A stretch of 64,000 bases of DNA from Felis catus (Eukaryota). Positions 2,482 to 61,437 of this stretch are shown one piece after another (position 1 is the stretch's first letter; each line of letters opens with the position of its first letter). The translations under genes were made by a program, and so were the position numbers. Location: positions 89,468,001-89,532,000 of the forward strand of contig NC_058368.1 of NCBI RefSeq assembly GCF_018350175.1, given 5' to 3'. The notes under the pieces are model-generated. The model was not told where the DNA came from. It did not search any database and worked only from the letters and a program-made list of their open reading frames with translations.

Positions 2482-2706
<225 letters not shown>

Positions 2707-2753
2707 TGATGCCTAACTGCACTGAGGCAGCGGTGAGATACCGGGGAGAGAGC

Positions 2754-8240: not shown

Positions 8241-8244
8241 AAAA

Positions 8245-11714: not shown

Positions 11715-11939
<225 letters not shown>

Positions 11940-13176: not shown

Positions 13177-14070
13177 ATGACCAAGCGGAAGAATTCCCCT
13201 CAGAAGAATCTCCAGGAAATAACAACAGCTAATGAACTGATCAAAAAGGATTTAAATAATATAACAGAAAGTGAATTTAGAATAATAGTCATAAAATTAA
13301 TCGCTGGGCTTGAAAACAGTATAGAGGACAGCAGAGAATCTCTTGCTACAGAGATCAAGGGACTAAGGAACAGTCACGAGGAGCTGAAAAGCGCTTTAAA
13401 CGAAATGCAAAACAAAATGGAAACGACGACAGCTCGGCTTGAAGAGGCAGAGGAGAGAATAGGTGAACTAGAAGATAAAGTTATGGAAAAAGAGGAAGCT
13501 GAGAGAAAGAGAGATAAAAAAATCCAGGAGTATGAGGGGAAAATTAGAGAACTAAGTGATACACTAAAAAGAAATAATATACGCATAGTTGGTATCCCAG
13601 AGGAGGAAGAGAGAGGGAAAGGTGCTGAAGGGGTACTTGAAGAAATTATAGCTGAGAACTTCCCTGAACTGGGGAAGGAAAAAGGCATTGAAATCCAAGA
13701 GGCACAGAGAACTCCCTTCAGACCTAACTTGAATCGATCTTCTGCACGACATATCATAGTGAAACTGGCAAAATACAAGGATAAAGAGAAAATTCTGAAA
13801 GCAGCAAGGGATAAACGTGCCCTCACATATAAAGGGAGACCTATAAGACTCGTGACTGATCTCTCTTTTGAAACTTGGCAGGCCAGAAAGAATTGGCACG
13901 AGATCTTCAGTGTGCTAAACAGAAAAAATATGCAGCCGAGAATCCTTTATCCAGCAGGTCTGTCATTTAGAATAGAAGGAGAGATAAAGGTCTTCCCAAA
14001 CAAACAAAAACTGAAGGAATTTGTCACCACTAAACCAGCCCTACAAGAGATCCTAAGGGGGACCCTGTGA
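13177..14070 (+). CDS. LINE-1 ORF1p (297 aa), intact
   Basis: Same translation as 351-1244 (minus); ATG at 13177. Confidence 0.95.
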   Translation: MTKRKNSPQKNLQEITTANELIKKDLNNITESEFRIIVIKLIAGLENSIEDSRESLATEIKGLRNSHEELKSALNEMQNKMETTTARLEEAEERIGELEDKVMEKEEAERKRDKKIQEYEGKIRELSDTLKRNNIRIVGIPEEEERGKGAEGVLEEIIAENFPELGKEKGIEIQEAQRTPFRPNLNRSSARHIIVKLAKYKDKEKILKAARDKRALTYKGRPIRLVTDLSFETWQARKNWHEIFSVLNRKNMQPRILYPAGLSFRIEGEIKVFPNKQKLKEFVTTKPALQEILRGTL

Positions 14071-14120
14071 GACAAAGTCCCAGAGACATCACTACAAGCA
14101 TAAAACATACAGACATCACA

Positions 14121-24779: not shown

Positions 24780-25750
24780 TCCTTCCACTGGAAGAACATT
24801 CTTCACCGATCACTCCTTCTCAAGCTCCTGTGCTGGGTCCCTCTTTTCTGCTGACCTCTTCACACCCTTGTCTGCTCTCTCCCCAGTCACTCCTTGGCGC
24901 TTGCATCCAGTAATGTGGTTTTACAGCAACTACAACTGATAGGCCCACACTGACTTGCCTTTGCCCACACACTTTACCCACATCAACAATCATATATCCA
25001 ACCGCCTACATGACATCTCCATGAGGATCTGTATTAGACGTCTGAAACTGAACTGGTCCCAAACTTCACTCTGGATATCACATCCTACACCTGCTCCTCT
25101 CACCTCCCCATTAGAGACTGTGGCAATCCTTTCCTTCAGTGCACCCAGGGAAGAACACTGGAGCCATCCTCCATCCACTCATCCACTCCACATCTACTCC
25201 ATCAGGAAAACCTGATTGGCTGCATTTTTAAAACAATCCAGAATCCAAACTACCATTCTGTCCTGTCTCAAAACCCCCATATCTCACGGGGATTATTCCA
25301 AAACCTCTTCACTGGTTCTCCTTCATATATCTTTTCTCCACTACACTCCAAGATCAACACAGCAGCCAGAATAATTCTGTGAAAATAGAACATACAACAG
25401 GCCACAACTGGCAAAAATTATGTATGTACATCAATTTTTCTGAGAATAATGGCAAAAGTAAGCCTTTTAATGGCTCAGTAAACCAGACATTGACCCAGCA
25501 TGCTGATCCCTCCCCATGCCCTCACATCACCCCCTGTGCCCTCACCAGCTGATGTGTCTCTTCCTCCCAGATTCCCTGATTCCTTTTTCCTGACTTCCTT
25601 CAGTCTTGGCTGAAACCTCATCTTCAAGACAGGTCCCTTCCTGACCACTCCTTTCAAAATACAAATCCTCCTGCCTGCACCAGGAAACCATTTTATCCTA
25701 CATTTATTTTCTAACCTGCTAAATGTTATGCCTCTTTCACTGAAAAATAT
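24780..25750. mobile_element. Ancient L2-like fragments
   Basis: Pyrimidine-rich degenerate sequence resembling the L2 3' region (recalled similarity only). Confidence 0.5.
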
Positions 25751-26333
25751 GAGCACATTTAACCCTCATTTGTATACTTTTGATCACTGGTACATGATCA
25801 AAAGCTGAGGAGTGCTGACTTATGGATGATATCTAACAATGAATTATTGATGACTGTTAAAACCTCAGAGATTGAGAGTTGGACACTCAGGAAATAGTTG
25901 TCAAATGATTAACTGAGACAAGAGAATGGCACTTTAGGTTTGATGCTTTGGCGTCGGGTGCCTGTGTTATTAAAGAAGAGGGTGCACTGCAAGAATGTGA
26001 ATAGGAATGAATCTCTACCTTCCCAGAAGGCACAGCATCAGCATGGGAAGCATAGGATCAAACTCTGTTAAACTCACTTTCCAAGAAGGAACTCACTTAT
26101 TCTCTTGATATTTTTGTACCAAAAAAAAAAAAAAAATCTGAGGTCAGCACTTTTCTCATTGGCCTGGGCACTACATGAATGTCAGCTTCATTTTGTTTGT
26201 CAGGCTTATTGGTTAATTTAAAAATGTAATATTTCAGTAAGTGTACTGATTGCAAAAAGAAAAATAAAAACCATAGAAAAATTGCTTAAATTACACATTC
26301 CTATTAATTAAAATTCCTATTACATATTAGGGG

Positions 26334-27034
26334 TTCAATTAAAAATTCAGTTGGTTTAGTAGCCCCGGAACCTTAGCACTTATATTTCTTTTTAATTGAA
26401 TCAATAGAGGTTTGGATGCTCCAACATAAATTATGGATCAATACTAAAGTGTCTGAGGAAAGAAATTACTCTCTGGATGGCTGTACTTTGACTAGATTAA
26501 ACAAACATAAACACCCTGCTTTCTAGCGGGTGAAAACAATGAACACTCTGAGTTTACTTTCTCCTCTAGTCTTCTAGAACTCCTCAGAATAACTTCTTTG
26601 AAAATTAGAAGAAGAGATGTTTGTGACCTCAGGTGCTGACTATGATTAAAAACACTTCCAAATTTATCAAGAGAACCCTCTGCAATTCACAGAGTAATTT
26701 GTGATTCCTCTGGACAAATCAGAAAGTTCACTGTGCACAAATGGGTTTTTTCAGTCCTTGGGGATGAAGCAACCCGCCCCTCATAGCCCTGGATCCAGGC
26801 AGCTACATCCAGCTGGAGCCCATCAGAGGTGCCTCCTGAACTGCTGAGGAGCTCAGACTCAGTAAGTCCCCTCCCTGTGTGCAGCTCTTGCATGCAGGGA
26901 GAGACCTGGCCATTCTTTGCAGGAATTTTGGTTCCCTAATCCTTTCTTATGTCAAGTACATTTTCTGCTGAATACTTTGCCTGTGCTTAAAGGTAAGTCT
27001 CCTTTCTCTGTGTTTCTGCACCCATACTCCTGTA
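26334..27034 (+). promoter_or_regulatory. Putative V1R promoter and 5' non-coding exon, ending at splice donor AAG|GTAAGT (26992/26993)
   Basis: Unique sequence ~9 kb upstream of the V1R CDS, strongly conserved with the paralog, with a consensus donor followed by a pyrimidine-rich intron-like tract. Upstream non-coding exons are typical of V1R genes. Confidence 0.65.
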
Positions 27035-27630
27035 CCCCTTTTTCCTTATTATATTTTTTCTATTCCATTTTTGCTGTCTTTCTTTTGTGTTACTCCTTTT
27101 ACTCTGCTGTTTTCTCCCTTTCATTTCTTTTCATTTATACTTAATTTTAATTTATAAGCTTTTTATACTTGTTTATATCCTCACTAATCTTCTACCCTCC
27201 ATGATCTTACCAGTTTTTCCTTTCTCTGCCTTTAATTTATTTATTGCTTATGAAACTCCGGTTTTAATTTCCTCTTGAATTCTATCTTATTTTTCCTCTT
27301 ATCTGCCAGCCCTTTCTTTATTCCATGCCTCCATTCTATCAATTTAAAAATATGTATTTCATTCTTTTCTGTCATTTCTTTCCATAGTTTATGGAGTTTT
27401 CCATAACCTTTTTTCATCCTTTTATAATGCCTTTCACATATTACTCACCATTATTTTGTGTTATTCATATGTATTCTGTTTACTCTTGCACATCTTCTGA
27501 TTTCTAAAACTCAAAAATTTCAAGAAATTTATTTTCTCTATGATTCTTTCTTGTATATTTTTTCTTTTATGTACAATTCTTCTAAAACTCTCTTTGGAAA
27601 GTTTAATTACTGTTATTAAAAACAATTTTA

Positions 27631-27850
27631 GGGGCGCCTGGGTGGCGCAGTCGGTTAAGCGTCCGACTTCAGCCAGGTCACGATCTCGCGGACCGGGAGT
27701 TCGAGCCCCGCGTCAGGCTCTGGGCTGATGGCTCAGAGCCTGGAGCCTGTTTCCGATTCTGTGTCTCCCTCTCTCTCAGTCCCTCCCCCGTTCATGCTCT
27801 GTCTCTCTCTGTCCCAAAAATAAATAATAAAAAAACGTTGAAAAAAAAAA
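27631..27850 (+). mobile_element. Young felid CanSINE
   Basis: CpG-rich copy with TSD aaaaacaatttta; absent from the paralogous position near 50885. Confidence 0.95.
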
Positions 27851-27944
27851 CAATTTTAAGGACCAATATTGTGTGGCATACAATTTGGATCTGTAAGAAA
27901 GACCAAGGAAATTTGCTATAAAAATTTTAAGTTATTTCAAACTT

Positions 27945-27946
<2 letters not shown>

Positions 27947-27976
<30 letters not shown>
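27947..27976. repeat. (TG)n microsatellite
   Basis: About 15 TG units. Confidence 0.95.
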
Positions 27977-27979
<3 letters not shown>

Positions 27980-29694
27980 TATTTTCTACAGACTGCAGTA
28001 TTCTCAAGGTCAGGTTCATAAACTTATTTGAAAAATCAACAACTGCTGTAAAAAAGTGCATTTCCAATATAATTTTGCTTCTATGATTCTGATTTATACT
28101 AGCTTCAATAAATTTATATTCTTTTTATCAGGATTACAGATAATATTACTAAGAGTCAGTTCAAAAGCAATCACTTAACTGTATCATAGACACTCAAAGA
28201 TATTACACAAACACATTTTGCTTAAGAGGAAAATAGAGTGATCAATGATGATTTCAGTCATTAGGTCAACTAATATTGACCTAATGTAGGTCAATACATT
28301 AGGTCAACCTTTTACTGGAAATATGAAAGGGAAGTTTGTGCTTATGTTAACAAGTAAAAGGAATGAAGTAAAATATTTAATTTATACACAAATGCATTCA
28401 ATTGTGGGAGACCATACAATATATTATGTAACAGGTCAAATACCACCATGTCAGAATTAACTATTCAAAAGAATACTTAAAGATTTACATCAGTGTAATA
28501 ACTTGTGAGCAGTTATTTCTTTTAATGCATTATAGGCAAACATGAGGTTCCTAGAATGGCCTCATGACATCACCTTAGGGATTGGGAGACTGACTTAGAA
28601 AAATGGACAAGAGGAGCCTACCAAAAGCTCCCCCAGTTCTAGGCCATAATTGCAAAGTGGTGAGAGAGAACCAATGCTCCCTCAGAGGACTGTGGACATA
28701 AGTCCCCAGGGAGTGACGGCCAGAGAGAACTTGGGTACAGATAGTTCCAGAAATTTCTGGAAACAAGCAGGAAAGCTTGAAGACCTGCATGCTTTGCTGA
28801 TGTCTGATAACAGCCCAGGGAGCTCTAGCTTTACCAGTGGATAAATTTGTTTGATCGTTTTATATACACTTTGCTTCCTTTCATGTCATCTTTCTCTTGT
28901 CCTGTTCACCCTCTTCTCTTCAGTGTATACTCCTACTCATAGCTGTGAAATTCTTACTCTTGTTCAATTTCTTATTTTTTTGTTAATCATTGGCAGTTTC
29001 CTACTACTCATTTTATTTACCACACCGTTCCTGTTTCCTGTTATCTCTTCTGCTCTCAGACTCCTGTATCTTATTTATTTAAAATAATCTGCCTTCACAA
29101 ATAGATTTTTAATCATGTCTCCTCTACTCTTCATCTCTAACGTGTGTGTTTTTGTCTTCTCTATTAACTTCACGTTCATTGCCTTCTATTCACTATCCAA
29201 TTCATTCATCATTTATTCAGGTTTTTCTTTTTTCACCTTTCAGTATTTAAATCCTTTTTCCTCTGTCCAAATTAATTACTTTCCCTTATTCATCTGTGAA
29301 TGTTTTCACTCTAAAATGTTTTGAAAACATTCTAATTTAATAATATTCAAAGATATTCTTTTTTTCTTTTCTCTTTATTATTTTAGTCTCCCCGACTCTC
29401 ATCTTTTGTTTCTGTTACTATGGCTTTTTTTTTTATCATGTCCACTTTTCTTTCCTCCTCACTTCCTCTATCCTTACAACTCTTTTGTTGATTAAATCAT
29501 TGATTTTTAATTCATGTGTCTATTTTTCCACTTACTGTAATAATTTATTTACTTTCTCCTTTTGGTATATATATTTTTTCATTTCTCTATTTTCTGTTGG
29601 TCTGCCATTCAATTTCTGTCACTTGTAAAGGCTTCCTGTTATTTAAATTACACAAATTTATGTCTAAGTTTTAAGACTTTTTGTTATTCCTTTT

Positions 29695-30200
29695 AGGGAG
29701 GAAATCTTTTTCCTCTACTCCCTTATGTTAGATATGGGAGCATGCAACCTAAGCTGACAAAAGACAGTTGAATGGGAGATGAAACCCCAAATTTATTCAT
29801 GTTTCTGTGGGAGCTCACAAGAGTTTAGCTCATGAATGGCTAAAATCAAGAGTTTATATAACTAACTTCAAAAAAATTGGGAAGGGGGAAGAAAAGCCTT
29901 CTATGAGAAGAACAAATTGGTTTCTAGGGGAACAAACAGAAGACAAGAAATTTTGTGATGATCATTGTCTATGCAGGTGTGAGTGCCATTTTCCATCTTT
30001 CTCAAGTCACCAGAGAAGGGAATTTATAACAGTGTCATTCCCAGAAGTTTCTAGTTTTAGTTACATAGAAGCTCCTAGCAGGCTTCCCCACCCCTATGTC
30101 TGTTGAATCTCAAATGTCTTTAGTTTAATTTTCTGAGAGTCATCCCTATGTCTGTTGAATCTCAAATATCTTTAGTTTAAAGTAATTTTCTGAGAGTCAG
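29695..30200. mobile_element. Probable old ERV LTR relic (paralog at ~51487-51990)
   Basis: Purine-rich block within pyrimidine-rich intron that resembles ERV1-class solo LTRs as recalled; present in both duplicated units. Confidence 0.45.
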
Positions 30201-31407
30201 CCACAATCCTATCTAATTGTCTGGTAGCAATTTCTTAGAAAACCAATGCTTCTAAAAAATTTTTCTTTTTCTTGATTTCCTAAAATCCCTAATGTAATGC
30301 TTTATATATATAATGCTATATATAATGCCTATATAATGCTATATATCCTTATATATTTTCTATGTCATGTTAGGCTTAACTTTTTCCATAATCTTTTTTT
30401 TTTCGTCTGTGCCTTTTTTTATTTCCACAATTTTCCTTAGGTTCTTGACTGTCCTCACTTGCTTTTCTTTCTCTTTTCCTGCTCATTCTGTTCAGCTGAT
30501 TTCCTGGCTGAGATGGCAATACCTTTGTTCTCTCCTGTTTCTATTTGCACTTGTACCTTCATATTCATTGTCCCCCTCTTTTCTTTTCCATTTTGATTAA
30601 CAATTGTCTCCTGATTTTAATTCTCCTTCTCATTTATTTTAAACATTCTCTTCAATAAAGCCTTGTTTCTCTTTCTTAATTCTTTATTCTCTCCTGATCT
30701 AACAAACAAGATTTTAGAAACAACCTCTCAAACTCAATGTAACAAAAGAGTTTAGATTTTGTTGAAAATAGTGTTAAATTTTAAATATTGCTGAGAACCG
30801 TCACTTTGTGATGTAGGGTATTATGATTTATAAATGTTCTATGGAGAATTTTTTCTTTCTTAACAACTTTCAACAGATTTGTATAATTTTATCCAAGAAA
30901 TTCTTACACAAATTTAAGATTATTTCATAGTATTATTATTAATCCTAAATTTTCTAAAATTACACTGTATAAAGAAATTAACTTCCAAAATAATGAGCTG
31001 TGTTACCAATTTAATACTTTTCTCTAGGTTTTCAAACTTATTTTCAGTGTCGACCATCTTATAATCAGTGAATAATGACAGTTACATCTTTTCATTTTCT
31101 AGAATGCTTATTCTTTTTCATTTGTTTATTTACCACATATATTAGGAGCTAAAATGCAATATAATGTGTGGACATGACAGTTGGTGCAGTTCTAACACTA
31201 TTGATTTAAAAGAGCATTGGGCTTCATTTATTAGTTCTATGTTTATATTAGCTAACTACCTTGCATAAAGTCAATAATCTCCTTTATATTTATAATATAC
31301 TAAGGAATTATATATTTATAATAAACAAATATTAAATGTATATGAATGTTTCTTACCCATTTAATGAGATAGTCATGTGCCTTTCTTCTTTAAGATATTA
31401 ATATGGA

Positions 31408-31601
31408 GGGGCTGCCTAGGTGGCTCAGTTGGTTGAGCACCTGATTCTTGGTTTCAGCTCAGATCATGATTTCATGGTTGGTGGGTCCAGTACCCCCGCC
31501 CCCGCAACTACCTTTGGGTTTGGGCTCCATGCTGACAGTGTCCCTGCTTAGGATCCTCTCTCTCTCAATAAATAAATAAATAAATAAATAAACTTAAAAA
31601 A
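31408..31601 (+). mobile_element. Older CanSINE
   Basis: SINE head, (AAAT)n tail, TSD aagat(a/g)ttaatatg. Confidence 0.88.
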
Positions 31602-32189
31602 AGATGTTAATATGAGACTTTCTTTAATACATTTTCTAAAGCTAAGACATTTTAACATTTTGGAGAAAATCCAAACTGTTAACAAAATATTGTACTTGTT
31701 TATACTTTGATTTATAGTTTCTAATCATTTATATGTATATTTATATATTTTATTGACATTAAATTAGCATAACATAAAAATAAACCATGTTTAAGTGTGC
31801 TATTCGGTCGGATTCATAACATTTTAAATGTTTTACTACTTTTATTAAGTTTCAAAGCGTTTCATCACCTGAAAAGAAAGCCCTAGACTCCACAGTCACT
31901 CCTTTGTCCTGTCTTTAGCCCTTGCAACCACAAGTCTGCTGTCTACAGATTTAGGAATTTATATATTTTAGGATATTTCATATAAATGAATTTATGCAAT
32001 ACATGAGTTTTTGATTCTAGCTTCTTTTGCTTTGTTCAGATTGGTCTTGCAAATGCGCTCATGTAGGTAGTAGGCTGGAGGATGGCTAGTGTTTCATATG
32101 GGTCTTGATGTTGCTTGGAGTGGAATACCTTCACATTTAATTCTGGATTTGGCTTAAGATTTCCTCCATGTGGTTGCTTATTTTCTTTT

Positions 32190-32397
32190 TCTTTTTTTAA
32201 ATTTTTTAAATGTTTATTTATTTTTGAGAGAAAGTAGCGGGGAGGGACAGAGAAAGAGGGAGACACAGAATTTGAAGCAGGCTCCAGGCTCTGAGCTATC
32301 ATCAGAGATTCCAATGCAGGGCTTGAACCCATCAACTATGAGATCATGACCTGAGCTGAAGTTGGATGCTTAACTGACTGCACCACCCAGGCACCCT
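32190..32397 (-). mobile_element. CanSINE (shared with the inverted duplicate at 9620-9846)
   Basis: Minus-strand SINE; TSD agaaaat(g/a)agca. Confidence 0.9.
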
Positions 32398-33123
32398 TGC
32401 TCATTTTCTAATAACCTAATAAGCTAGGATGCTTCATACGTTCACAGGAGAGCAAGCCCCACATGAAGGCACTTATCAAGATTCTGTTTGTGTTATGTTT
32501 GCTCCACAATGAATGGCAAAGCAAGTCAAAGGCTAAACCATATTCAAGGGATGGAGAAAAACACATTACAATGTCTACATAGGGAAAAATTCATAGGTAT
32601 TTTTGCAGTCTACCACATTCTGGGACCAAGAGCAAATGAGATGTGAGAAACTGGAGACAAACTGAGATAATTACATGCAGGAATATTGCTCAAATGAAGG
32701 GTAGAAATGACTCAAGAAATGTGCAAGAAATACACTACATCTGCATGTTGATAGGGAAATTTTGATAATGGGTGTAAGAGAGAAGAATAATGAAAGATTG
32801 GAGTCTTAAGCAGAAAAGAGAACCTCAGATTTATTGCACAAATGGATGGATTAGCTATGATAAAGAGCCTTGGCAATTCATTCACAGCACCAGGGTAGAA
32901 TGACAAATATACAGAGAAAGAAATTAATGTAGTAGCAAGTTTTTTGGGAAATAATCTTTTGCTTATTTTAATTTTCTAAATGAAGTATGCAGTGTATCAA
33001 TAAATGAATAAAAATGCATATGTACATTTATTTACAAATATTTATAAAAATGGATCTTATTCACAATGGAATATTATTCAGTCAGTAAAAAGGAAATCTT
33101 GCCATTTAAGACAACATGAATAG

Positions 33124-33328
33124 AGTGGCGCCTGGGTGGCTCAGTCAGTTGAGCATCCGACTTCAGTTCAGGTCATGATTTCATAGGTCTTGAGTTCAAG
33201 CCCCGCGTCGGGCTCTGTGCTGGCAGCTCAGAGCCTGGAACCTGCTTTATATTCTGTGTCTCCCTCTCTCTGCCCCTTCTCCGCTCATGCTCTATCTCTC
33301 AAAAATGAATAAATGTTTAAAAAAATTT
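33124..33328 (+). mobile_element. CanSINE inserted after the inverted duplication
   Basis: TSD aagacaacatgaataga; empty site in the paralog at ~8904-8920. Confidence 0.93.
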
Positions 33329-33702
33329 TAAGACAACATGAATAGAACCCAATGTAAGTCAGATAAAGAAAGACAAATACTGTGTGATCTCACTTATATG
33401 TGGTATATAAAAAAAGATCCATTGATACAAAGAACAGATTGGTGGCTGCTATAAAAGGGGTTGAAGGGTAGGTAAAATGGGTGAAGGGGGACAAAAGGTA
33501 TGAACTTCCTGTTATAAAAGAATAAGTCCTGTGGATGCAGTGTACAGCAAGGGGGTGATGATAGTTAGTAATAATATATTGTATATCTGAGGTTGCTAAG
33601 AGAGTAAATAATAAAATTTGTCATCACAAGAAAAAAGTAGTAACTATATGTGATGATGAATGTTAACTAGAGTTGCTGTAGTGATCAATTTGCAATACGA
33701 TT

Positions 33703-34034
33703 TACATTTGAACAACATAGTGATTAGGGCACTGAACCCCCATGCAGTTAAAAATATGCATATAAATTTTGACACCCCTAAATTTGACTGTTAGTCACCA
33801 ACTGTTGGTCAGAAGCTTTACTGATAACACAATCAACTAACACATATGTTGTATCATACATGCATTATATACTGTATTCTTATGATAAAGCAAGTTAGAG
33901 AAGAAAAATGTTATTAAGAAAATGATTAGTAATACATTTACAAAACTAGAAATACATTCACAGTATTGTACTTTTAAAAATCCACATATAAGTGCACTCA
34001 GGGACTTCAAATATGCTTTTGAAGAGTCAACTGT
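33703..34034. mobile_element. Tigger2-type non-autonomous DNA transposon relic nested in an old L1 3' end
   Basis: Ends ...ttgaacaacat and ...gaagagtcaactgta; paralog at 8245-8566. Confidence 0.65.
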
Positions 34035-35749
34035 ATATAAAAATATCAAGTCACATGTTGTACATCTGAAACTAACATAAACTTTCATGTCCATTATATC
34101 TCAATTAAAAATGTGCAATTTGTCATCAATTGAATGTGAGATTGGGAGAGGATAGGTTGGCAGTTTAAAAATAAAGAAGTTATGAAGTAGTCATCAAGAT
34201 GAGTGACAAAGTGAATACCCAAGGAATACTCTAGAAAATTTAGTGTGATTCCTGCTGAAAATAAAAGTTCACTGGACCTTAGTAGTGAAGGATTTGACAT
34301 GAGTGTAGTTAACATATTTTGTGTTTTACTCCAGCCTTGATTATCTGAGCATGATGCCATGAATGAGACAGAATATTAGATTTAACAGGAGTTGATATTT
34401 TTCCATGGTGAGTTCTATGAAGTAGGAAAAATAAATCAGTGGAATCAGCTATTTTTTCAAGAAGTGATGATGACCTTGGATTGTGGAAGTTCAGGTAAGA
34501 AGGAGAGGCTCTGGGAGGGTTGTGGAGAGTAAAGAGATCAATGTTTCTCAGACACTGATGATGTCAAAGTAATACTGGAGTTAGAGATTAGATAAAGTAA
34601 GCTGCAAATGGTAGTAGGAGAATGAGAAACACAATGAGTCTACAATATTTGTAATGACAACTCTAGTATTTGAACAGGAGAAAAAGTGGATGTGGTTGGG
34701 GGCAGCAAAAGTGTTGGAAGAGAGATCACAAATGTGAGAGGCTAGGAATATTGCACTGGTCATCTGTATGGGAAATCTCCAAGAACATGACAGAATTTGA
34801 GTTAGACACAATGAGTCACTAGCTACTGAGGGGAGCGACTTGGGTCAGTAGATTACTTCCACAAAGAATGATGACAAATGTTTCAAAACTGGAGTAATGG
34901 AGAATTATCTGAATATGCCTGGTATCAAAGAGAACATTCTCACATACAGGACTAGTGATATAGGAGACAGAGGAGAGAAAGATCGCACTACTTGAGAGAG
35001 ATGCTGGAGAAGCAGTGACTTCCAGGTAGAACAAAGACAAGAAGTGAATTTTCAGTACAGAGATGGCAGATGCAAATGAACTGACCCATGAGCTGATCTG
35101 ATATTCATCATGTGCATTGGAAAGGTCTTGGACTTGGGGAAGCATGTTGAAAGGGGCAGAAAAAAGGAATTTACAGAGCCTGATGGTCATGAGAAACTCT
35201 AGGGATGGAGTTCTTCTGGTGAATAATTACACCAGAAGTGTAACAATATGGTGATAACAATATAGTGATAATAATATGTGTTAAATATGGTAGAAATGAA
35301 ATAATAAACATTAAAATACATTAGTAATTTTCTGTTGTTTATGACAGAAGATTGAAAAGCATTAAAATTATAAAATGTAATTCAGAATACATACCCAGAA
35401 CTTAAATAAAATCTCCATAAATCTGAAATATTGTTTTTCATGAATAAAAAAATTATCCTTCAGGATAGTCAGTTTATTTCTCAGAATTAGAGTAATGTTT
35501 TTATAAATAAGGCATGTTTTGTCTCAAACCTAATACTCCCCTGAAGTGACATCAATAATCCTTGACATATGCCTCTAGAACCAATTCTTAATTTCCTGAA
35601 TACTCTTATAGAATATTTGCACAACCTACTGCCAAGATTGATCATATCTCAAGGGCTCTCCATAGAGTCCTGTTATTTCTATCAAGCTTACAGATCATTT
35701 TCTGCCTCTTTTTAGGCTGTTGAGGAGTCTATCCAGAGTAGAAGAGGCC

Positions 35750-36742
35750 ATGAATATAATAGTTTCAAGTGATACTATTTTGGGAATATTTTTTCTCTTT
35801 CAATTTGGGATTGGTTTTATTGGAAACACATTATTACTCATGTTAAACATCAACACTTTATTTCAGCCCTCCTCCAAAAAGCCTATAGATTTGATATGCA
35901 CCCATTTAACTTTAGCTAATATCATGACAATTCTTTCCAGTGTGATTCCAGAAATAATAAATGCTTTTGGGGTAAGAAATTTTCTGGATGACATTGGTTG
36001 TAAGGCAGTGCTGTACATCTACAGAGTCACACGGGGTGTCTCCCTCTGCACCACGTCTTTCCTGAGTATTTTTCAGGCCATAATTATCACTCCTAGCAAC
36101 TCTAGGTGGGCATGGCTCAAACCCAAAGTCTCCACGTACCTTTTTCCTGCCTTCTTTTCTTTCTGGATCATCAACATGCTGATCTACATCCGTGTCATCA
36201 TAACTGCTGTGGGCCCCTACAACATCAGTGAAGTTGGACAAGTGTATTCACTGACATACTGTAGCGGGAGAGAACCTGATAAACTTCAGGAGGCTGCTTT
36301 TCTAGGGGGTATGGTCTTACGAGATATTCTGTGTATTTGCCTCATGATCTGGACCAGTATGTACATGGTAAACTTTCTCTTCATACATCGCAAGACAGTC
36401 CAGCATGTCCATAGGACCAGCCTCTGCCCAAGACCATCTCCCGAAACCAGGGCCACCCACACAATCCTGGCACTGGTGAGCTGCTTTGTTTTCTTTTACT
36501 GGACCAACACTTGCCTTACCATTTACATAATTTACAGACATAATGTACAAAGTCTGGAGAACATTACTATTTTTCTCTCCTCTTGTTATCCAGCAATCTG
36601 CCCTTTTGTGCTGATCAAAAATAATAATAGACGATCATTTCTGAACTGTAACTTTGCAAAAACGAGAAAGTCCTCACCACAGTCTATGTCCCTTAGAGGT
36701 TTGAACGCCCTCACAAACTTCTTTGACACAAGAGCCATGTGA
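35750..36742 (+). CDS. Vomeronasal type-1 receptor (V1R/VN1R family 7TM GPCR), 330 aa, intact single coding exon
   Basis: V1R motifs: GIGFIGN, KPIDLICTHLTLAN, FLDDIGCK..YIYRVTRGVSLCTTSFLS.FQA, WAWLK, HRKTVQHVH, PETRATHTIL.LVSCFV.FY, YPAICPFVLI. ATG in gccATG context, acceptor tctgcctcttttttag at 35715, AATAAA at 36871. Confidence 0.96.
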   Translation: MNIIVSSDTILGIFFLFQFGIGFIGNTLLLMLNINTLFQPSSKKPIDLICTHLTLANIMTILSSVIPEIINAFGVRNFLDDIGCKAVLYIYRVTRGVSLCTTSFLSIFQAIIITPSNSRWAWLKPKVSTYLFPAFFSFWIINMLIYIRVIITAVGPYNISEVGQVYSLTYCSGREPDKLQEAAFLGGMVLRDILCICLMIWTSMYMVNFLFIHRKTVQHVHRTSLCPRPSPETRATHTILALVSCFVFFYWTNTCLTIYIIYRHNVQSLENITIFLSSCYPAICPFVLIKNNNRRSFLNCNFAKTRKSSPQSMSLRGLNALTNFFDTRAM

Positions 36743-37518
36743 TTACATTTTCCCACATTAAGATTTTAGTAAGGTAGAATTCTGCAAGGGTATAAATAAT
36801 TTTTACTTTGGCCATTTCTTCAAACCATCCAGCTTAATGAACACATGGAGATAAATGACAATATTCATAAAATAAAACATATTGCACCTGAATGGGGCAC
36901 TATTTTACCTTTTTTAAAATGATTGTAAAAAAATTATTCTTCTCATTATTTGGATGCTTCCAGTTTGAGACATCTTCCCTAATGTGACATAGGTATTAGA
37001 TGAGTTATAGCAACTACCCTTGCTGGTATATGCTAGACAGCCCTCATTAGACAAAATTATGTTATATCTACATTGTTGTGTACTTTAGAAGCCAACAATA
37101 CTTGAGGATACTATATGCTGTTGATTATATCTGGTTAAATCATGGATAATGATGTAACTAAATATAACCATACTTTCCCTACTCCACTGAATAACCAAGT
37201 GTCCTCAAAGCCAAATGTATTATTCTCAAATGCTTGGTGAAAAACACTTGGCTTTCTATTTGTACATCTTTGTATCTGTTAGCACCATTAGAAGTATTCC
37301 TTAAATGTACATTTTGTTTTCTGAAGACATACATTCTATATTGTGGCAGATTTTTTTTGAAGCTTTGCACTTTTATGAAGAAATATTTAGCACTTCTGAG
37401 ACATAACACTATGATATATTAGAAAACCTGAAAAAAATCTGCTAGAAAACAGCTAAAATCTCAGTATAATATTTAAACTTTTTTTTCATTAAGAACTGTG
37501 TTTAAACAAATGTAAGGA

Positions 37519-37747
37519 GGGGTGCTTGGGTGGCTCAGTTGGTTGAGTGTCTAACCTCAGATCAGGTCATGATCTCACAGTTTGTGAGTTCAAGTCCCTC
37601 ATCAGGCTCTGTGCTGACAGCTCAGAGCCTGGAGCCTGCTTTGAATTCTGTGTCTCCATCTCTCTGCCCCTCCCCTGCTCATGCTCTGTCTCTCTCTGTC
37701 TCTTTCTGTCTCTCAAAAATAAATAAATGTTAAAAAAGTAAAAAAAA
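37519..37747 (+). mobile_element. CanSINE
   Basis: SINE head, CT tract and tail; TSD aaatgtaagga. Confidence 0.92.
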
Positions 37748-38471
37748 TGTAAGGAAACTTCTGATTAGGAAAACAAGAATAAAATGAATGCTGAAAATGC
37801 AGCTGCTCTCAGCACATGTATTAATCTTACAGCACAGACCTCTGAACTTCATAACTTCTTGGGAAAGATAAACTGAAAATTGAAGCCACAGATTAGAGAT
37901 TGATGAGGTAACACAGTTCACTCACATTCTTTTTACAATAGAAAGAACTGATGCACTAAAAGATTGAAACGAAAAAGGAAACATTTATATTAGACTAATA
38001 GTTTATTAAAAACTTGAAGTATCTATAGCTTTGTGTGGGGAAGATGGTGAAATAAGAAGACCTTCAGTTCACCTCATCCTGTGGATACAACTAGATAACA
38101 TTAAATCAGTGTGAATAACCCAGAAAATGACCTAAAGACTGGCAGAACAAACCCCACAACTAAACGTAGAGAAGAGGCCACATTGAAGAGGATAGGAAGG
38201 GCAGAGATGTGGTGGGGAGCTAAATGAGCCATGGCCATGTCTGCGAGGGAAGGAGCCACATGTGGGGAGAGGGGTGAGAAACAGACTATCACACCAGGAA
38301 GCCTGTACCCCAGGAAGAAGAATCTCTTGAAAACTAGCTGGGCCAAATTTTCAGAGTCCTTACAACCAGCAGGATTAAAGCCTGAAACTTTAAAAAATCA
38401 CCAGGCTCAGCTCTGGGAGAGCTGAGAGGGCAATAGGAAACTAGGTCCACCTTTAAAGAGATAGCACAATA

Positions 38472-47600: not shown

Positions 47601-48220
47601 ATTGAGCTAAAGGGACTGTGCCATCTAGGGGGCACTACGTAGGGGACTGAAGCTTGTAAAATGACCACAGAATTTATCTAAATCTAAAGGATGACAACAT
47701 GAAAAGAGAAGACTAGCACCATCCCAGCCCAGGTCACAATTAGCAAAAATTATGTATGTCCATCAATTTTTCTCAGAATAATGGCAAAAGTAAGCCTTTT
47801 AATGGCTTGCTAAACCAGACATGACCTGGCCTGCTGAACCCTTCCCATGCCCTCACATCCCCCCTGTGCCCTCACCAGCTGATGTGTCTCTTCCTCTGGC
47901 TGCAGTGCTCCCCTCGCAGATTCCCTTATGCCCTTTTCCTGACTTCCTTAAGAGTTTGCTGAAACCTCATCTCCAAGACAGTGTCCTTCCTGACCACTAC
48001 TTTCAACGTTCTAGCGTCTTACCTCCACCAGCAAACCTTTTATCCTTCATTTACATTCCAACATGCTATTATGCTGCTTGCATGAAAAATAGGATCACAC
48101 TTAAAGTATTAATTGTGTCTCCTTTGTTTACTGATGTATGGCCTACATCTGGAAGTACAGGCTTATAAATAATATTTAGTCACATGAATTATCAATGACT
48201 TTTAAAACCTTGGATATTAA

Positions 48221-48420
48221 GGGGTACCTGTGTGGTTCAGTCGGTTAAGCATCTGACTTTGGCTCAGGACATGATGTCACAGTTCCTATGTTCAAGCCCC
48301 ACATCGCTGCTGTCAGTGCAGAACCCACTTCGAATCCTCTGTTCCCCACTCTCTCTGCCCCTCCCCCACTTGTGCACACACACTCTCTTGAAAATAAATA
48401 AACATTAAATTTAAACAAAA
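48221..48420 (+). mobile_element. CanSINE (unit B-specific)
   Basis: TSD aaaaccttg(g/a)atatt; empty site at ~25860 in unit A. Confidence 0.88.
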
Positions 48421-48671
48421 ACCTTGAATATTGAAACCTGAACACTGAGTAAATAGTTGTCGAATGATTAATAGAGATAAGAGATGGCATTTTTAGGTCT
48501 GATATTGGAGTCAGGTGCCTGTCTTACTAAAGAAGGGGGTACACTCCAGGGATGGGAACAGGAAAGAAGCTCTACTTTCCCAGAAGTCACAACATTAGCT
48601 TAGAATAAAATTCTGTTAAACTCACTTCCAAAATAGGAACTCACTGATTCTGTTGATATATATATCAACAG

Positions 48672-48816
48672 AAGAGCAGAGGGGGAGAGAGAGAGAATCT
48701 TAAGCACTGCATGCTCAGCGCAGAGCCATCACAGGGTTCCATCCCACCACCCTGGGATCACAACTTGATCTGAAATCAAGAGAGGGTCACTCAACCTGCT
48801 GAGCTACCCAGGTGCC
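48672..48816 (-). mobile_element. Older short CanSINE (unit B-specific)
   Basis: Minus-strand head ...gagctacccaggtgcc; tgttgata flanks. Confidence 0.8.
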
Positions 48817-49048
48817 TCTGTGTTGATAGTTTTGTACAAAAAATTCTGAGCTCAGCCCTATCTCATTAAACTAGACACAACATGAATTTCAGGGTAATTT
48901 ATTTTTCAGGGTGATTGCTTTATTACAAAATGCAAGATTTTGACAATTGTACAAATTGAACAAATTTCCACAAGGAAAATTAAAAAAAAACAATAAATTG
49001 CTTTAATTATATAGTTACATTAATTAAAGCACTTATATGTATTAGGTT

Positions 49049-49757
49049 TTCAATTAAAAATTCAGTTGGTTTAGTAGCCCCAGAACCTTAGCACTTATAT
49101 TTCTTTTTAATTGAATCAATAGAGGTTTGGATGCTCCAACATAAATTATGGATCAATACTAAAGTGTCTGAGGAAAGAAATTACTCTCTGGATGGCTGTA
49201 CTTTGACTAGATTAAACAAACAAACAACCAAAAACACCCTGCTTTCTAGCGGGTGAAAACAATGAACACTCTGAGTTTACTTTCTCCTCTAGTCTTCTAG
49301 AACTCCTCAGAAAAACTTCTTTGAAAATTAGAAGAAGAGATGTTTGTGACCTCAGGTGCTGACTATGATTAAAAACACTTCCAAATTTATCAAGAGAACC
49401 CTCTGCAATTCACAGAGTAATTTGTGATTCCTCTGGACAAATCAGAAAGTTCACTGTGCACAAATGGGTTTTTTCAGTCCTTGGGGATGAAGCAACCCGC
49501 CCCTCATAGCCCTGGATCCAGGCAGCTGCATCCAGCTGAAGCCCATCAGAGGTGCCTCCTGAACTGCTGAGGAGCTCAGACTCAGTAAGTCCCCTCCCTG
49601 TGTGCAGCTCTTGCATGCAGGGAGAGACCTGGCCATTCTTTGCAGGAATTTTGGTTCCCTAATCCTTTCTTATGTCAAGTACATTTTCTGCTGAATACTT
49701 TGCCTGTGCTTAAAGGTAAGTCTCCTTTCTCTGTGTTTCTGCACCCACACTCCTGTA
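49049..49757 (+). promoter_or_regulatory. Near-identical copy of the putative V1R promoter/non-coding exon; donor AAG|GTAAGT at 49715/49716
   Basis: About 5 substitutions and one small indel versus 26334-27034 by eye. Confidence 0.65.
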
Positions 49758-50033
49758 TCCTTTTCTTTTTCTTATCATTTCTTTACTATTCCATTTCCCT
49801 CATCAGTCTTTCTTATTCCTCTTTTTATTTTGCTGAATTCTCCTGTCATTGCTCTTCCTTTATAATTCTCAGTGTTGTGATTAAAATTACTTATTTCTCT
49901 TACAGTCTTCAAACTTATCTGTTATGTTAATATTTGTATTTTTTTAATTAATCAATGTTTTTTTGTTTATACCTTTACTATCTTCCATCTTTCGTGGTTG
50001 TTCTCAAAAGTTCTCATTTATCACCCCTTGATT

Positions 50034-50486
50034 AATTTTTTTAAGTTTATTTATTTTGAGAGAGAGAGGGAGAGAGTGGGGGACAGGGGCAGAGAGAGAG
50101 GGAGAGAGAGAATCCCAGGCAGGCTCCACGCTGTCAGTGCAGAGCCTGATGGGGCCTGGAACTCACAAACCATGAGATCATCACCTGAGCTGAAGTTGAG
50201 TCAGACATTTAACTGACTGAGCCACCCAGGGGCAGGCACCCCTCAATCGTTAATTTATTTATTGTTTTTGCAATTCTATTTAATTTTTTTTACGTTTATT
50301 TATTTTTGAGACAGAGAGAGACAGAGCATGAATGGGGGAGGGTCAGAGAGAGAGGGAAACACAGAATCTGAAACAGGCTCTAGGCTCTGAGCACAGAGCC
50401 TGATGCAGGGCTCGAACTCACAGACTGCAAGATCATGACCTGAGCCGAAGTCGGACGCCTAACCGACTGAGCCACCCAGGCACCCC
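50034..50486 (-). mobile_element. Two adjacent CanSINEs (50034-50233 and 50284-50486)
   Basis: Two minus-strand SINEs; the second has TSD ttttgcaattctattt. Confidence 0.9.
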
Positions 50487-52469
50487 ATTTTGCAATTCTA
50501 TTTTAAATGTACCCCTGACTTGCTCCCTGCTTTTCCTCTTCTCTTCTACTTTTGACATTTCATTTCTTCCTTCTTTCACTCCCTTCTGTTATCTTAAGTG
50601 CTTATATTATATTCCTTTCTATAATCATTTACATTCTTAACATAGTTTTCTATAATGTTTTTTTCCTTTTTCCATGAAACCATTTCATGCATTACTACCA
50701 TCTCCATCAGAGTATGAATGACCACTCATACCTATTCTGTCTATTCTGACATATATGCTAATATTCTAAGATCCAAAATTTTTGAATATTCAAACTAAGT
50801 TTTTTTACTCTGAATCTGTCCTGTATATTGTCCCTCTCAATCACAATTTTTCTGAATCTCTTTTGGAAAACTTATTAAGTCACTAAAAATAATTATATAA
50901 ACCCATTTTGTATGGCAAAAAATATGAAGATGTATGAAAATCAAGGATTTTACTTCAGTCCAGACCTCACATATTTTTTTATGTAAAATTCAGATTCATA
51001 AACTAACTTGAAACATAAACAGCTGCATTTATTTAAGAAGCATTTCCAGTAAAAGTTTTCTTCTCTCATTCTTATTTATACAAGTTAGTATAAAGTTATG
51101 TTGTGTTTATTCATTCTTCTTTCTTTTTCTCTTCTTACTTCAGTCTACCCTTTCCCATCTTTAGTGTCTGCTGTTGGTGTCTCCCTTTCTTCCTCTCTCT
51201 TTATATCATGCCCTCTTCTCTTCTTGCCTCCTCTTTCCTTTAAAACTCATGACTCCTTACATTAACTGAATATTAGTTTTTTTAATTCCTTTCTCCATTG
51301 TTTTCCACATATGGTAAAAACCTCCTTTCCTTTTATTTTCTCATTTTTGTCTCTATTGTGTTGGTGTCATTTCTCTACTTTCCATTGCTTTGTCATAATA
51401 TTTCTCTCACTTGTGAGTGCCTTCTGATTTTTAGATTACATAAATTTATATCCCTTTTGAGTTTTACTATTTCTTACCGATCATGCTGAGGAGAAAAACC
51501 TCTTCCTCTACCCTCTTATGTTGGTTATGAGGGCCTGCAAATTAAATCAATAAAAGAAGAACAAGAGAAAAAGCAAAAAAAAAAAAATTATTCACATGCT
51601 TATGGGAGTTCATAAAAGAAGTAACTCGTAAATGGCTAAAATTAGGAGTTTATATACTCAACCTCAAAAAAAGAAAGAGGGGAGAGAAAAGGCTTCTGTG
51701 GTAAGAATAAATGGGTTTTGAAGAGAACAAATACAAGATAAGAAATTTGTATAATCACTTTGTATGCAGGTGCAAGTAGTATTTTCTTTCTTTCTCAGGA
51801 CCATAAAACACCATCAGAGAAGGGAATTTATAAAAGTTTCTTTCTCAGTCGTTCCTGAATTTAGTGAGAAAGGAAAGCCTCTAGGAGGCTTATTCCTGCA
51901 GCCGTTGAATCTCAAATGTGTTTGCTCTAAAGTAATATTCACTTGGGAGTTAAAAATAAAATAAAAATAAAAATAAAATCACATTAACTTGGAGAATTCA
52001 ACGGGTCTCCACAATACTATCTAAATTATTCTCATATCAAATTCTTACTCAGAAACCAAAGCTTCTCACACATTATTCTTTTTTCTTGCTTTCCTAAAAT
52101 TCCCCATTTCATGTTTTTTAATTATTCTGATATGTATCCTAATATTTTTTATTTATTATTAGGCTTCATTTTTTCTACAATCCTTTCTCTGTGCTTTTTT
52201 ATTTGCACAATTTTCTTTATTTTCTTGCCTGTTTTCAATTGTATTTTTTTTTCTCTCTTTCCCTTGTTTTTTTTAGCTGATTTCCCTGTTGGCATGCCAC
52301 TACTCTCGTCCTTTTGTCTTTTTTAATTCTACTTGTACCTTCATATTTATTATTTCTCTTTACCTTTCCACCTTGATTAAACATTGTCTCCTAATTTCTA
52401 TTCCCTTTCTCTCTCATTTTCTTTCATCTCCTCCACTGATCTATTAATTTATTTAAACACTGCTTTTTA

Positions 52470-52696
52470 TTTTATTTTTATTATTTTTATTTTTTATGTT
52501 TTAGAAGTTTTTATTTAAACCCAAGTTAGTTGTGGCACCTGGGTAGCTCAGATAAGCGTTGGACTTTGGCTCAGGTCATGATCTCACAGTTTGCGGGTTC
52601 CAGCCCCACATCATGACTCTGTGCTGACAGCTCAGAGCCTGGAGCCTGCTTCAGATTCTGTGTCTCCCTCTCTCCCTGCCCCTCCTGGGTAGCGCA

Positions 52697-52731
<35 letters not shown>

Positions 52732-52840
52732 AAAAATAAACATTAAAAACAAATCTTAACACAAGTTAGTTAACACACAGTGTAATATTAGTTTCAGGTG
52801 TACTGAGCACTTCCATACAACATGCAGTGTTCATCACAAA
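52470..52840 (-). mobile_element. Short L1 3' tip (minus) with nested plus-strand CanSINE (52531-52750)
   Basis: T-rich tail and L1 3'UTR end; SINE flanked by caagttagtt. Confidence 0.8.
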
Positions 52841-55199
52841 AATATGTGCAATTTTTACTGCCTTGTTTTCCTGTTCATGTTTCTTGCCTCTTCATTTGTC
52901 TCTGATCTCAAAAACAAAATTTACATACAAATTTTCCAAGTCAATGTAAGAAAGTGATTTAGATTTTGTGGGCAGTTGCAATGAGTTTTAAATATGGTTG
53001 ACATGTGGCACTTCATGATATTGGGTATTCTGATTTATAAGCATCCTATGTGCTACTACTATTTCTGTCTTAACAGTTTTCAATTGACTTCTGCAGTTTA
53101 TTATAGAAATTCTCACATAAATTTGAAGTTACGTCACACTGTTATTGTCATCCTATATCTTATAGTTTCTAAAATTACATTATCTATGGAAATACCTGTT
53201 AAAATAAGTAGCTGTGCTACCTACTGTAATATTTTTCTCTAGAGTTTTAAACTTATTTTCAGTGTAGACCATATTATCATCAATTAATAAGAACAATCAC
53301 ATTTTTGGTTTTTGGAATGCTTATCCTTCTTTTAATTCTTTTCCACATATGTTAAGAGCCCCAATGCAATAAAAAACGGGGACATAATAGGCAGTGCACT
53401 TACACTTCTCACTTAAAAGAGAATTAGTTGGGTCCCATAATTTATTGTTTGTTCTATGTTTATATTAGCTATCTTTCTTGCATAAATTTAAAATCTTCTT
53501 TGTATTTACAATATACGATAGGGTTTTATTTTGTCATAAATACATGTTAAATATATATGAGTGTACCTTTCTTACCTGCTAAAATATCATGTGCCTTTCA
53601 TGTTTCAGGCATTAGTATGGACAATTATGTTAATAGATTTCTTAAATATAAGGCATCTTAGAATATCTGAAAAATTTAAACTGTTTATGATATATTATTC
53701 TCTTTATACCTTGGTGTATATAGCTCACATTATTTATATGTATATTTATATACATTATTGAGATGAAATTAGCAAAACATAACATTAGCCATCTTATTTT
53801 GTGCCATTCAGTGGAACCTACATTTGCAATGTTGTGCAACCACAGCTCACATTAAGCTTCGAAACATTTCATCACTCCCAAAGAAAACCACAGAATCCCC
53901 AGTCACTCTTCTCTCCTCCCTCCCTCCATTCCCTGGAAAACAATGTCTGCTTTCTGTCTACAGATTTATGCATGTTTGGATATTTCATATAAGCAGAGTC
54001 AGACCATGTGTGACTTTTGAGTCTCACCCCTTTCACTTCTTTGCTGAACTCTCTCATGAGAGTGTGGGCATATCTTGACTAGAGAATGACTGGTGTCCCA
54101 TATGGGTTCTAATTTTCCTTTTGGAAATTCCTTTTGGAAATTTCCTTTTGGAATTGTTGCACCTAGCCAGAGCACTCTTTATCCTTTCCTAAAATTATTG
54201 TCAAAAATTCATACCTATGATTACTTGGATACCCTTATTTCTAAGAGTTCCCCTATAATGAGACATATCTATCAGTTAAAGTACAGTAACTACAATTGCT
54301 GGATTATGCTGGACTGCCTTCACTAGGCAAAAAAATTTTATATCTGCACTGTTGTATATTTTGGATCCAATGCTTGAATTTACCATATGCTGCTGATTAT
54401 GTCTAGTTTAATCATGGAGTGTGATATATAAGTGTACATATAACCATGCTCCCTTCACTCTATGAATACTGATCACCATTCCCCAGAGCACAAAAGTATT
54501 GCCCATTCTCAAATACTTCATAAGACCCCATGTTACCTTGTGTGTGCACAATTTTGTATCTGTTTACATCACTAGAAGTATTTCTTGAATTCTTACACAT
54601 TCTATTTTGTATAAGCATATTGTTGTGTCAATAGCTAATATTTTTACGTGGGCAGTGTTGTACTTTTATCAAAGTACTTAGCAATTCTTATATATCACAG
54701 AATGATAAATAGAAAATTAATTTTTTCTTGAAAACAGTCAAAATTCTCAGTAAAATTCTTATAAACAATTTTTAATAACTGCCTCAAATAAATATAAAGT
54801 CAATCTGATGAAGAAAAAGTAGTAAGCTTCATGCTAAAAGTGCAGCTGCTCTCAGCACATTTGTGACTCTTACAGCACAGACCTCTGTGCTTCAAAGCTC
54901 CTTGGGAAAGAGAAAACTGGGGGTTAGAGCCAGAATACAAAGATTTGCTAATTATGTAACACAATTCAACTACATTCTTTTTACAATAGAAGTAACTAAT
55001 GCATGAAGACACTCAAAGATTGAAATTAAAAAGGAAAAAAAACTACAGTAGGCTAATTGACATAAAGCTAAATTAAACATATAAAATATGAGACAAAATT
55101 ATGTGGTTATAATGGAGGTAACTATAATAATGATAAAGGGATAAATTAACTTGGAAGAAATATCTGCCCTAAAATTGAATACAGTTAGAATAGTAACTC

Positions 55200-60882: not shown

Positions 60883-61437
60883 CCTTTTGGCCAGACCACC
60901 ATCTTCCAATAATTCGCCAAAATGACCAACACAAAGGGAAAGAGGGGAGGCGCCCACTATATTCTCTAGGCCTTTTAGAAAAAGGAGTTGGAGTTGTTCC
61001 TTTGTCCACATATATGTGAATCTACAAGAAAAGTGATATTGTAGACACAAGGGAATGGGCACTGTTCAAAAAGGAGTGCCTCACAAATGTTAACATGGCA
61101 AAACTAGAAGAGTCTACAGTGTCACCCAGATGCTGTTGGCATTGATGTAAACAAACAAGTTAAGGGCAAGATTCTTGCCAAGAAAATTAGTGTACATATT
61201 GAGCATATTAAACACTCAAAGAGCTGAGACAGCTACCCGAAATATGTGAAGGAAAATGATCAGAAATAGGAAGAAGCCAAAGAGAAAGGTACTTGGTTTC
61301 AACTGAAAGGCAAGCCTACTCCATCCAGAGAAGAATACTTTGTGAAAACTAAAGGAGGCTGAGCTGCTGGAACCCACTTCCTATGAACTCATGACATGGT
61401 AAGTGTTAAAAAAAATACCTCAAGACTATTAAAAAAA
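60883..61437 (+). pseudogene. RPL21: Processed pseudogene of 60S ribosomal protein L21
   Basis: Intronless. Pyrimidine-rich 5' start, ATG at 60922 giving MTNTKGKR; later [33 protein letters not shown] and ELLEP..YE; multiple stops and frameshifts; A-rich tail. Confidence 0.95.

Follow-up and report, generated by a model that had tools for sequence, protein, structure and literature searches.

The window analysed here, a stretch of 64 kb from the genome of Felis catus, holds an old tandem duplication whose two units, A and B, are colinear with an offset of ~22.7 kb at their most similar part. Unit A includes an intact V1R gene, and unit B is its paralogue without a coding exon. Each unit contains one copy of a block of about 0.7 kb, referred to as core A and core B; the window harbours just these two copies and no N. 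The coordinates of all these features are collected in Table 1. The window also contains two copies of an element which we take to be L1 from the ORF1/ORF2 translations, at 1-2752 (-) and 11669-14420 (+); they point outwards in opposite directions with 8.9 kb between them, and only 2 of 2752 bases distinguish them, yet the ORF2 of the copy at 11669 is split into five pieces. This inverted pair is either very young or homogenised. Another inverted repeat pair (8242-9777 and 32240-34020) is 86-90% identical and has its second copy inside the V1R intron; apart from embedded SINEs, it gave no match to L1 or SINE probes.

Table 1. Features of the V1R tandem duplication in the 64-kb window of Felis catus
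Feature	Position	Strand	Remarks
Unit A of old tandem duplication	25398-37999	+	alignable extent, from alignment
Unit B of old tandem duplication	47730-55057	+	without coding exon; from alignment
Second, weaker island	25398-25650 (B 47730-48000)	+	90-93% identical, two 33-bp perfect runs
Core A, homogenised block	26334-27034	+	701 bp; 99.1% identical to core B; candidate promoter plus 5' untranslated exons for the intact V1R
Core B, same block in the coding-less paralogue	49049-49757	+	709 bp; 22.7 kb downstream of A, direct orientation
Motif cluster	26707-26780	+	CNTCTGG 26707, O/E-like site (one mismatch) 26755, GC box 26773; in B 49430, 49478, 49496
Putative 61-nt intron	26862-26922 (B 49585-49645)	+	GTAAGT ... 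pyrimidine tract CAG; from sequence only
Putative 70-nt non-coding exon	26923-26992 (B 49646-49715)	+	perfect AAG/GTAAGT donor; intron from 26993 / 49716
Putative acceptor of coding exon	35714-35716	+	34 nt upstream of ATG; from sequence
Intact V1R ORF	35750-36742	+	330 aa, felCatV1R2 cluster; Pfam V1R PF03402, E=3.2e-80
Two old B-only SINE-like inserts	48204-48828 (~48213-48426, 48660-48828)	.	between second island and core B; absent from A
Deletion junction in B	54120-54160	+	~A 32151 joined to A 36882; precision of a few tens of bases
Frameshifted RPL21 processed pseudogene	60920-61400	+	Pfam Ribosomal_L21e in two frames, E=1.5e-8 and 2.5e-11

The V1R ORF is the single intact coding exon of unit A, and its Pfam match and its felCatV1R2 cluster place it in the V1R family. 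Its product shows no difference from the Felis catus protein P0132 and one from NP_001160946.1 (felCatV1R2). A partial Lynx pardinus model, P0127, begins 11 residues ahead of the cat methionine, i.e. at the start of the coding exon. Three Lynx models (P0123, P0126 and P0127) differ from the cat protein in the last three residues (window 36734-36742), and P0127 continues beyond the cat stop, which suggests a small C-terminal frameshift in Lynx. Among the best 120 of 254 matches, with names given for cluster representatives only, one felid-named and one hyaenid-named cluster exceed 60% identity. A tree of the V1R clade built by a quick method from 48 rows (including P0003-P0031) puts 18 ursid rows in one group with a support of 100; this protein tree shows a bear-specific expansion and cannot place unit B. 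When compared with metagenome contigs, the V1R protein gave two short matches of 40-42% identity, with no DNA match to the window.

In unit B, the stretch equivalent to A 32152-36881, which includes the V1R coding exon, is missing. The joint of this deletion (54120-54156) carries a short, imperfect motif repeated three times, and templated insertions at end-joining scars give such imperfect repeats. Searches of the window by tblastn, with an HMM built from 60 relatives and, on both strands, with a frameshift-tolerant profile built from 120 relatives found no V1R relic elsewhere, unit B included, and the N-terminal extensions of 137 stored V1R proteins had no tblastn match in the window outside the ORF. 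As the exon is deleted and no relic remains, unit B is a gene unit with a 5' end, an intron and a 3' flank and without a coding exon, as the earlier note on this DNA had held; it has no recognisable broken V1R coding sequence of the kind that defines a pseudogene, and is better described as a coding-less relic unit. There is likewise no downstream coding exon for the donor of B within 14 kb, up to position 64000, where an RPL21 retrocopy is all that was found. A decayed V1R gene served by B had been suspected by eye at 62.3-64 kb and was rejected, its score of 15.6 standing against a shuffle mean of 15.9 and a maximum of 20.0; Pfam gave no receptor family in this region over nine frames. The single felid-named and hyaenid-named clusters among the matches listed, several of which are unnamed, hint only faintly that a working ORF has been missing from B for more than 10 My, since before the felid radiation, in which case selection on the old gene of B may not bridge the gap.

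Outside the core, the two units align in 11 colinear blocks with 1191 differences over 4799 gap-free columns, corresponding to 75.2% identity and a K2P distance of 0.30 (K of single blocks, 0.20 to 0.42); since these blocks were chosen from BLAST matches and unalignable stretches were excluded, the true divergence of the flanks is, if anything, higher. Identity amounts to 80.6% upstream and 74.0% downstream, and ranges from 60 to 84% per 100 columns, the second island excepted, so that the earlier description of old, diverged flanks stands while its range of 75-85% was too high and too narrow. SINE-like inserts, presumably belonging to the Can-SINE family, are private to one unit or the other, again as described earlier; all six of those tested have candidate target-site duplications (TSDs) of 8-16 bp, five of which flank the insert as expected. 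The two B-only inserts between the second island and core B carry TSD-like repeats of 9 and 8 bp; compared with ten other SINE copies they average 73-75% identity, against 81-84% for the rest. With a mutation rate of 0.86e-8 per generation taken from cat pedigrees, and 3.8 years per generation (10.1101/2021.04.06.438608), K values of 0.20-0.35 would put the duplication at 44-77 My by a rough clock, in keeping with the great age suggested before.

In contrast to these flanks, the two core copies are nearly identical. A global alignment shows 695 of 701 positions identical (99.1%), with 6 substitutions at A 26367, 26508, 26590, 26805, 26816 and 27025, corresponding to B 49082, 49231, 49313, 49528, 49539 and 49748 (four transitions and two transversions), and a sole indel of 8 bp inside a (CAAA)n tract near A 26505; the one short indel counted previously is thus right, and the number of substitutions is 6 rather than about 5. 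With a core difference of 0.86%, the chance of at most 6 differences in 701 bp is ~10^-75 at the rate of the flanks, and 10^-9 even at a rate of 5%. Local identity therefore greatly exceeds that of the flanking paralogous sequence (99.1% versus 75.2%), as expected of a non-allelic gene conversion tract, and sliding identity places the flanks so far below the core that a flank as similar as the core can be dismissed. The step is abrupt at both edges, from 99% to ~73% with no intermediate shoulder, and the differences show no clustering within the tract (KS p=0.88). The core offers perfect runs of 214 and 208 bp. The identity spans a putative intron, microsatellite and AT-rich sequence, and so reaches beyond motifs alone. 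On the right, the tract stops 42 bp inside the putative intron that starts at the donor 26993/49716, close to the ~40 bp beyond AAG/GTAAGT stated earlier; on the left, a perfect 12-bp inverted repeat (26334-26345 / 26389-26400) begins exactly at the edge, where folding is no better than in shuffles (z -0.4 and -0.6).

Homology between the units reaches right up to both edges, over 200 bp on the left and over 110 and 250 bp on the right (0 of 1000 shuffles in each case), so that the core block is no insert; the tract is embedded in colinear older homology without a TSD, and makes up ~0.7 kb of the 5.5 kb of alignable unit sequence. A young multi-copy transposable element that inserted twice is therefore hardly credible as the source of the block. 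At least 45% of the window consists of L1 and SINE sequence, which is in favour of such an element, but there are only two copies in 64 kb, both sit in the same paralogous position, and the flank alignment runs on without a gap. Nor did a search for hallmarks of transposable elements find a TSD of at least 6 bp within 40 bp of the edges, an AATAAA signal, a terminal repeat or a poly(A) tail at the core, and a young element, considered earlier as an alternative, fails as far as the window permits a test.

An artefact of assembly, in which a single block was placed twice or two haplotypes were taken for two loci, is very improbable as well. In its favour, 7 of 8 exact ORF look-ups turned up no B-derived ORF in the collection, none of the three ORFs of B being found there; besides the ORF across the right edge of A, six window ORFs, these three among them, had no match in the collection. 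Against it, each copy lies in register within its own old homologous flanks, unlike a mis-join, in a window without N, and an ORF across the right edge of A recurs without a single mismatch on an independent 1061-bp contig (P0139), which supports the junction in A. Furthermore, the difference of 0.86% exceeds the heterozygosity of the cat, which is ~0.2%. Both cat copies also carry private changes relative to a third copy, P0138 (see below), so that mis-assembly, named as a danger in the earlier note, does not hold up as far as it could be tested.

The second island upstream of the core (Table 1) suggests exchange in the past. Its best 150 columns contain 10 differences, and none of 2000 permutations was as low, although the permutation ignores rate variation, and a BIC segmentation assigned no separate segment to it. 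It may be an older conversion tract or a constrained element, and may have been cut off from the core by the two B-only SINEs. By eye, A 24900-25750 resembles what we take to be an L2 3' fragment; if so, the second island would be neutral DNA, which points to older conversion.

The core is probably the promoter and first exons of the V1R gene, a plausible reading, put forward earlier, that derives from position and motifs. The motif cluster was scored with O/E and GC-box consensus strings that we assumed. CNTCTGG occurs 46 times in the window and O/E-like sites at one mismatch 12 times on the + strand, so the motifs carry little weight. The O/E-like, CNTCTGG and MV12 motifs near the start site are taken from PMC3247230; MV12 has no match in the core. 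As to position, mouse V1R promoters are described as islands of 0.5-1 kb within 10 kb of the coding exon (PMC1955453), and the cat core is such a conserved island, of 0.7 kb and 8.7 kb upstream. The core holds two donors, one of them a perfect MAG/GTRAGT. On the + strand the two core copies are the sole matches to MAGGTRAGT in 64 kb, and both strands together give 3 matches versus 2.49 expected, so that the notable thing is the location of the donor alone; about 0.014 would be expected per 701 bp of one strand, by post hoc arithmetic. No structured RNA family is indicated, as Rfam gave no match at the gathering threshold in the window.

The third copy bears on how the identity arose. P0138 is a predicted ORF on a 1103-bp contig that is matched by a non-genic minus-strand frame of the core (the one candidate of one), and corresponds to A 26507-26893 (387 bp). 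Read through its amino acids, in a comparison frame that shows ~70% of base changes, it differs from both cat copies in five codons, by at least 6 bases; it shares the state of B at 26805 and 26508 and that of A at 26590, and the remaining one of the four A/B differences within its span is silent. The informative changes over the 387 bp comprise 6 in the third copy only, 2 in A only and 1 in B only, and the microsatellite of P0138 is 4 nt longer than that of A and 4 nt shorter than that of B. After correction for silent changes, the distance of P0138 to the cat copies is ~2.6-3%, against 1.0% between the cat copies themselves over this span. As a query, P0138 found only itself among 10 candidates, a 113-aa frame across the right edge of B had no match among the representatives, and an exact 21-mer of the core had no match in metagenome contigs or in viral contigs.

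Two things follow from this comparison. With at least 7-8 changes in 387 bp against each cat copy, in place of the near-zero change of ultraconserved elements, the block accepts change in P0138 and is not ultraconserved. At the same time the cat paralogues, whose flanks put their separation tens of My back, are closer to each other than to the outside copy, as conversion predicts, in one third copy over 387 bp. Conversion thus explains the pattern better than selection alone. P0138 could itself be a third paralogue; were it one from the cat, conversion would still be the better account, with more copies involved.

Accordingly, we give almost no credence to a reading in which both copies of the block have been held fixed by purifying selection alone ever since the units duplicated. 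V1R promoters are indeed conserved within subfamilies (PMC1955453), but the ratio of core to flank divergence is 0.028 here, versus 0.8-0.9 for most mouse V1R promoters and ~0.63 for those of subfamilies A and G, which are coding-like (PMC1955453). With the 9 informative changes and assumed split times of the third copy, selection without conversion has a P of 4e-5 to 1e-6 for a split 11 My ago if the third copy is an orthologue of A, and of 5e-4 to 2e-5 if it is an orthologue of B; for a split 35 My ago, P is 0.003-0.16. Of the earlier proposal of recent gene conversion and/or selection, conversion is therefore upheld by the identity step, the old flanks and P0138, and selection as the cause of the identity is not supported, given the ratio of 0.028 and P0138.

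We consider it probable that the block is a recurrently converted promoter/5' exon module, of which core B is a passenger without a selected role. An ancient tandem duplication would have produced two V1R gene units, whose promoter/5' exon blocks diverged less than the remainder and so kept the capacity for recombination. After a germ-line double-strand break in either block, repair would have used the other, 22.7 kb away, as its template, with 0.7 kb copied and the copying halted where the 25%-diverged flanks start. At first, selection acting on both promoters while they were live may have upheld the likeness, and later repeated copying, B's coding exon having been removed by deletion, so that the B block would now be a passenger of promoter-limited concerted evolution. 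From 6 differences in 701 bp, the last homogenisation is estimated at ~1.9 My (0.7-4.1), with a halved rate doubling the age, and the most recent sweep may thus have occurred ~2 My ago (0.7-4). Conversion tracts have a mean length of 250 bp, and detected tracts of 880 bp (10.1101/135152), and the match of the 0.7-kb tract to these published lengths counts for conversion.

Several points stand against this preferred reading: no shoulders lie beside the core, as eroding repeated tracts might leave, recurrence is presumed from the A/B pair of a single species, and neutral persistence is demanding in a toy model. In the latter, 701 bp evolved at the cat mutation rate with human conversion parameters (300 runs per setting), and identity was scored as kept with at most 13 differences. 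At the human mean rate, the share of runs that kept it was 0-27% after 10 My, falling to 0-4% after 30 My and to 0% after 60 My; at 60 My, 0-87% were kept at 4 times this rate and 0-100% at 20 times, depending on the homology rule. Neutral persistence hence took 4-20 times the human mean rate together with a lenient homology rule. Upkeep over such times therefore calls for a local hotspot, for the gene in B having been lost late, or for selection; failing these, the event was a one-off.

Such a one-off, in which homeologous conversion or a template switch, as a rare and isolated event ~2 My ago, overwrote B from A or from a third copy, with neither a long concerted history nor a function implied, is a minority possibility that we take seriously. 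The clean edges, the lack of shoulders and the even spread of the differences agree with it, and so does P0138, since an ordinary felid orthologue of A might differ by as much as P0138 does. Conversion below 80% identity is rare but on record (PMC3924818). According to the same source, however, efficient conversion needs a minimal segment of ~200 bp of perfect match, and its rate falls sharply near 80% identity, whereas the longest perfect run in the flanks is 33 bp and those adjoining the core are of 10-11 bp at most. Such short runs speak for a block that had stayed alike all along rather than for a new jump. The coincidence of the tract with the putative promoter and exons, which form so small a part of the alignable sequence, and the existence of the second island also speak against a single event.

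The requirement for 4-20 times the mean conversion rate leaves some room for a function of B. The block in B might be under selection as a cis element, either an enhancer that stabilises transcription of the neighbouring V1R or a choosable null promoter that tunes the frequency of its expression, with conversion matching it to A; we regard this as improbable. The roles proposed earlier for B, as a decoy in receptor choice, an enhancer or the first exon of a non-coding transcript, are conjectural. It would account for an upkeep that is hard to achieve neutrally at average conversion rates, and the motif cluster and both donors lie within the tract. Mouse V1R genes are argued to need cluster neighbours for stable transcription, and the choice of a null allele to lock out its cluster in cis (PMC9668312); the window holds no V1R ORF or relic besides the gene of A. 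On the other hand, conversion yields an identical sequence pattern without function, B's own changes have accrued at about the pace of A's (1 versus 2 substitutions, and one repeat-length change each), and the donor of B lacks a downstream coding exon within 14 kb. A more specific version, in which a gene-less promoter is kept on purpose, as a cluster element stabilising the lone V1R or as a null promoter setting the number of neurons in which that gene is expressed, and is conversion-matched across felids, is speculative, and we think it decidedly improbable. If true, V1R promoters would double as mutual enhancers, which would name the cis element behind the cluster dependence and the lock; the cis elements underlying these two phenomena in mouse are described as undefined (PMC9668312). 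A functional B would offer a natural minimal test case for them.

The preferred reading, recurrent conversion of a promoter module, has several precedents. The earlier statement that V1R promoters are unusually conserved among rodent paralogs is borne out in mouse, where conversion of promoters had already been proposed: paralogous promoters of subfamilies A and G resemble each other more closely than expected from orthologues, and conversion was credited (PMC1955453). There, as in the cat, an unbroken island of >500 bp lies upstream of the coding exon and is more alike between paralogues than the remaining duplicated block, for which Stewart and Lane (2007, PMC1955453) proposed conversion. 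The cat pair differs in its degree (99% versus 75%, ratio 0.03 against ~0.6 in mouse), in being from a carnivore, in its base-sharp edges and in a partner without a coding exon; the words 'orphan' and 'pseudogene' are absent from the main text of that paper. In addition, the mouse start sites were mapped by RACE, while the cat promoter is a putative one.

SIGLEC11/SIGLEC16P in primates are neighbouring paralogues that share, in each species, a 2-kb tract which takes in upstream sequence and is 97-99% identical, and they resemble the cat pair in that a non-functional partner participates, with a human event ~1 My ago (PMC5701461). Their tract contains coding exons, their flanks are 88-93% identical and they lie head to head, whereas the cat tract is non-coding, with flanks at 75% and direct orientation; recurrence and direction are established for them, with the non-functional partner as the source of the copied sequence (PMC5701461). 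BMP8A/B, DDX19A/B and TUBG1/2 are, like the cat units, old duplicates with a homogeneous segment that includes an intron, but both partners are intact genes and the pattern extends across many mammals over 100 My (PMC2720389). A further parallel is the capture of a V1R promoter by Fpr genes, where, as presumably in the cat, a promoter outlives its own coding exon and stays conserved; null V1R alleles are choosable in mouse (PMC9668312). The Fpr promoters drive new coding sequence, whereas none was found downstream of B in the window. We found no literature on this cat locus in a search of main texts that covered few subscription journals, and V1R promoter peaks without coding sequence may possibly have been mentioned in print before.

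The cat locus is well explained by a known process, as a tidy carnivore case of a phenomenon already proposed for V1R genes, the twist being a partner without a gene. In practice, short reads from the two core copies will cross-map, and the 6 substitutions and the repeat length are what discriminates between them. For the V1R family, it provides an unusually clean example for the suggestion of Stewart and Lane that the identity of V1R promoters results from gene conversion and not from selection on binding sites. As identity can persist in a copy without a gene, promoter conservation among V1R paralogues is no proof of function.
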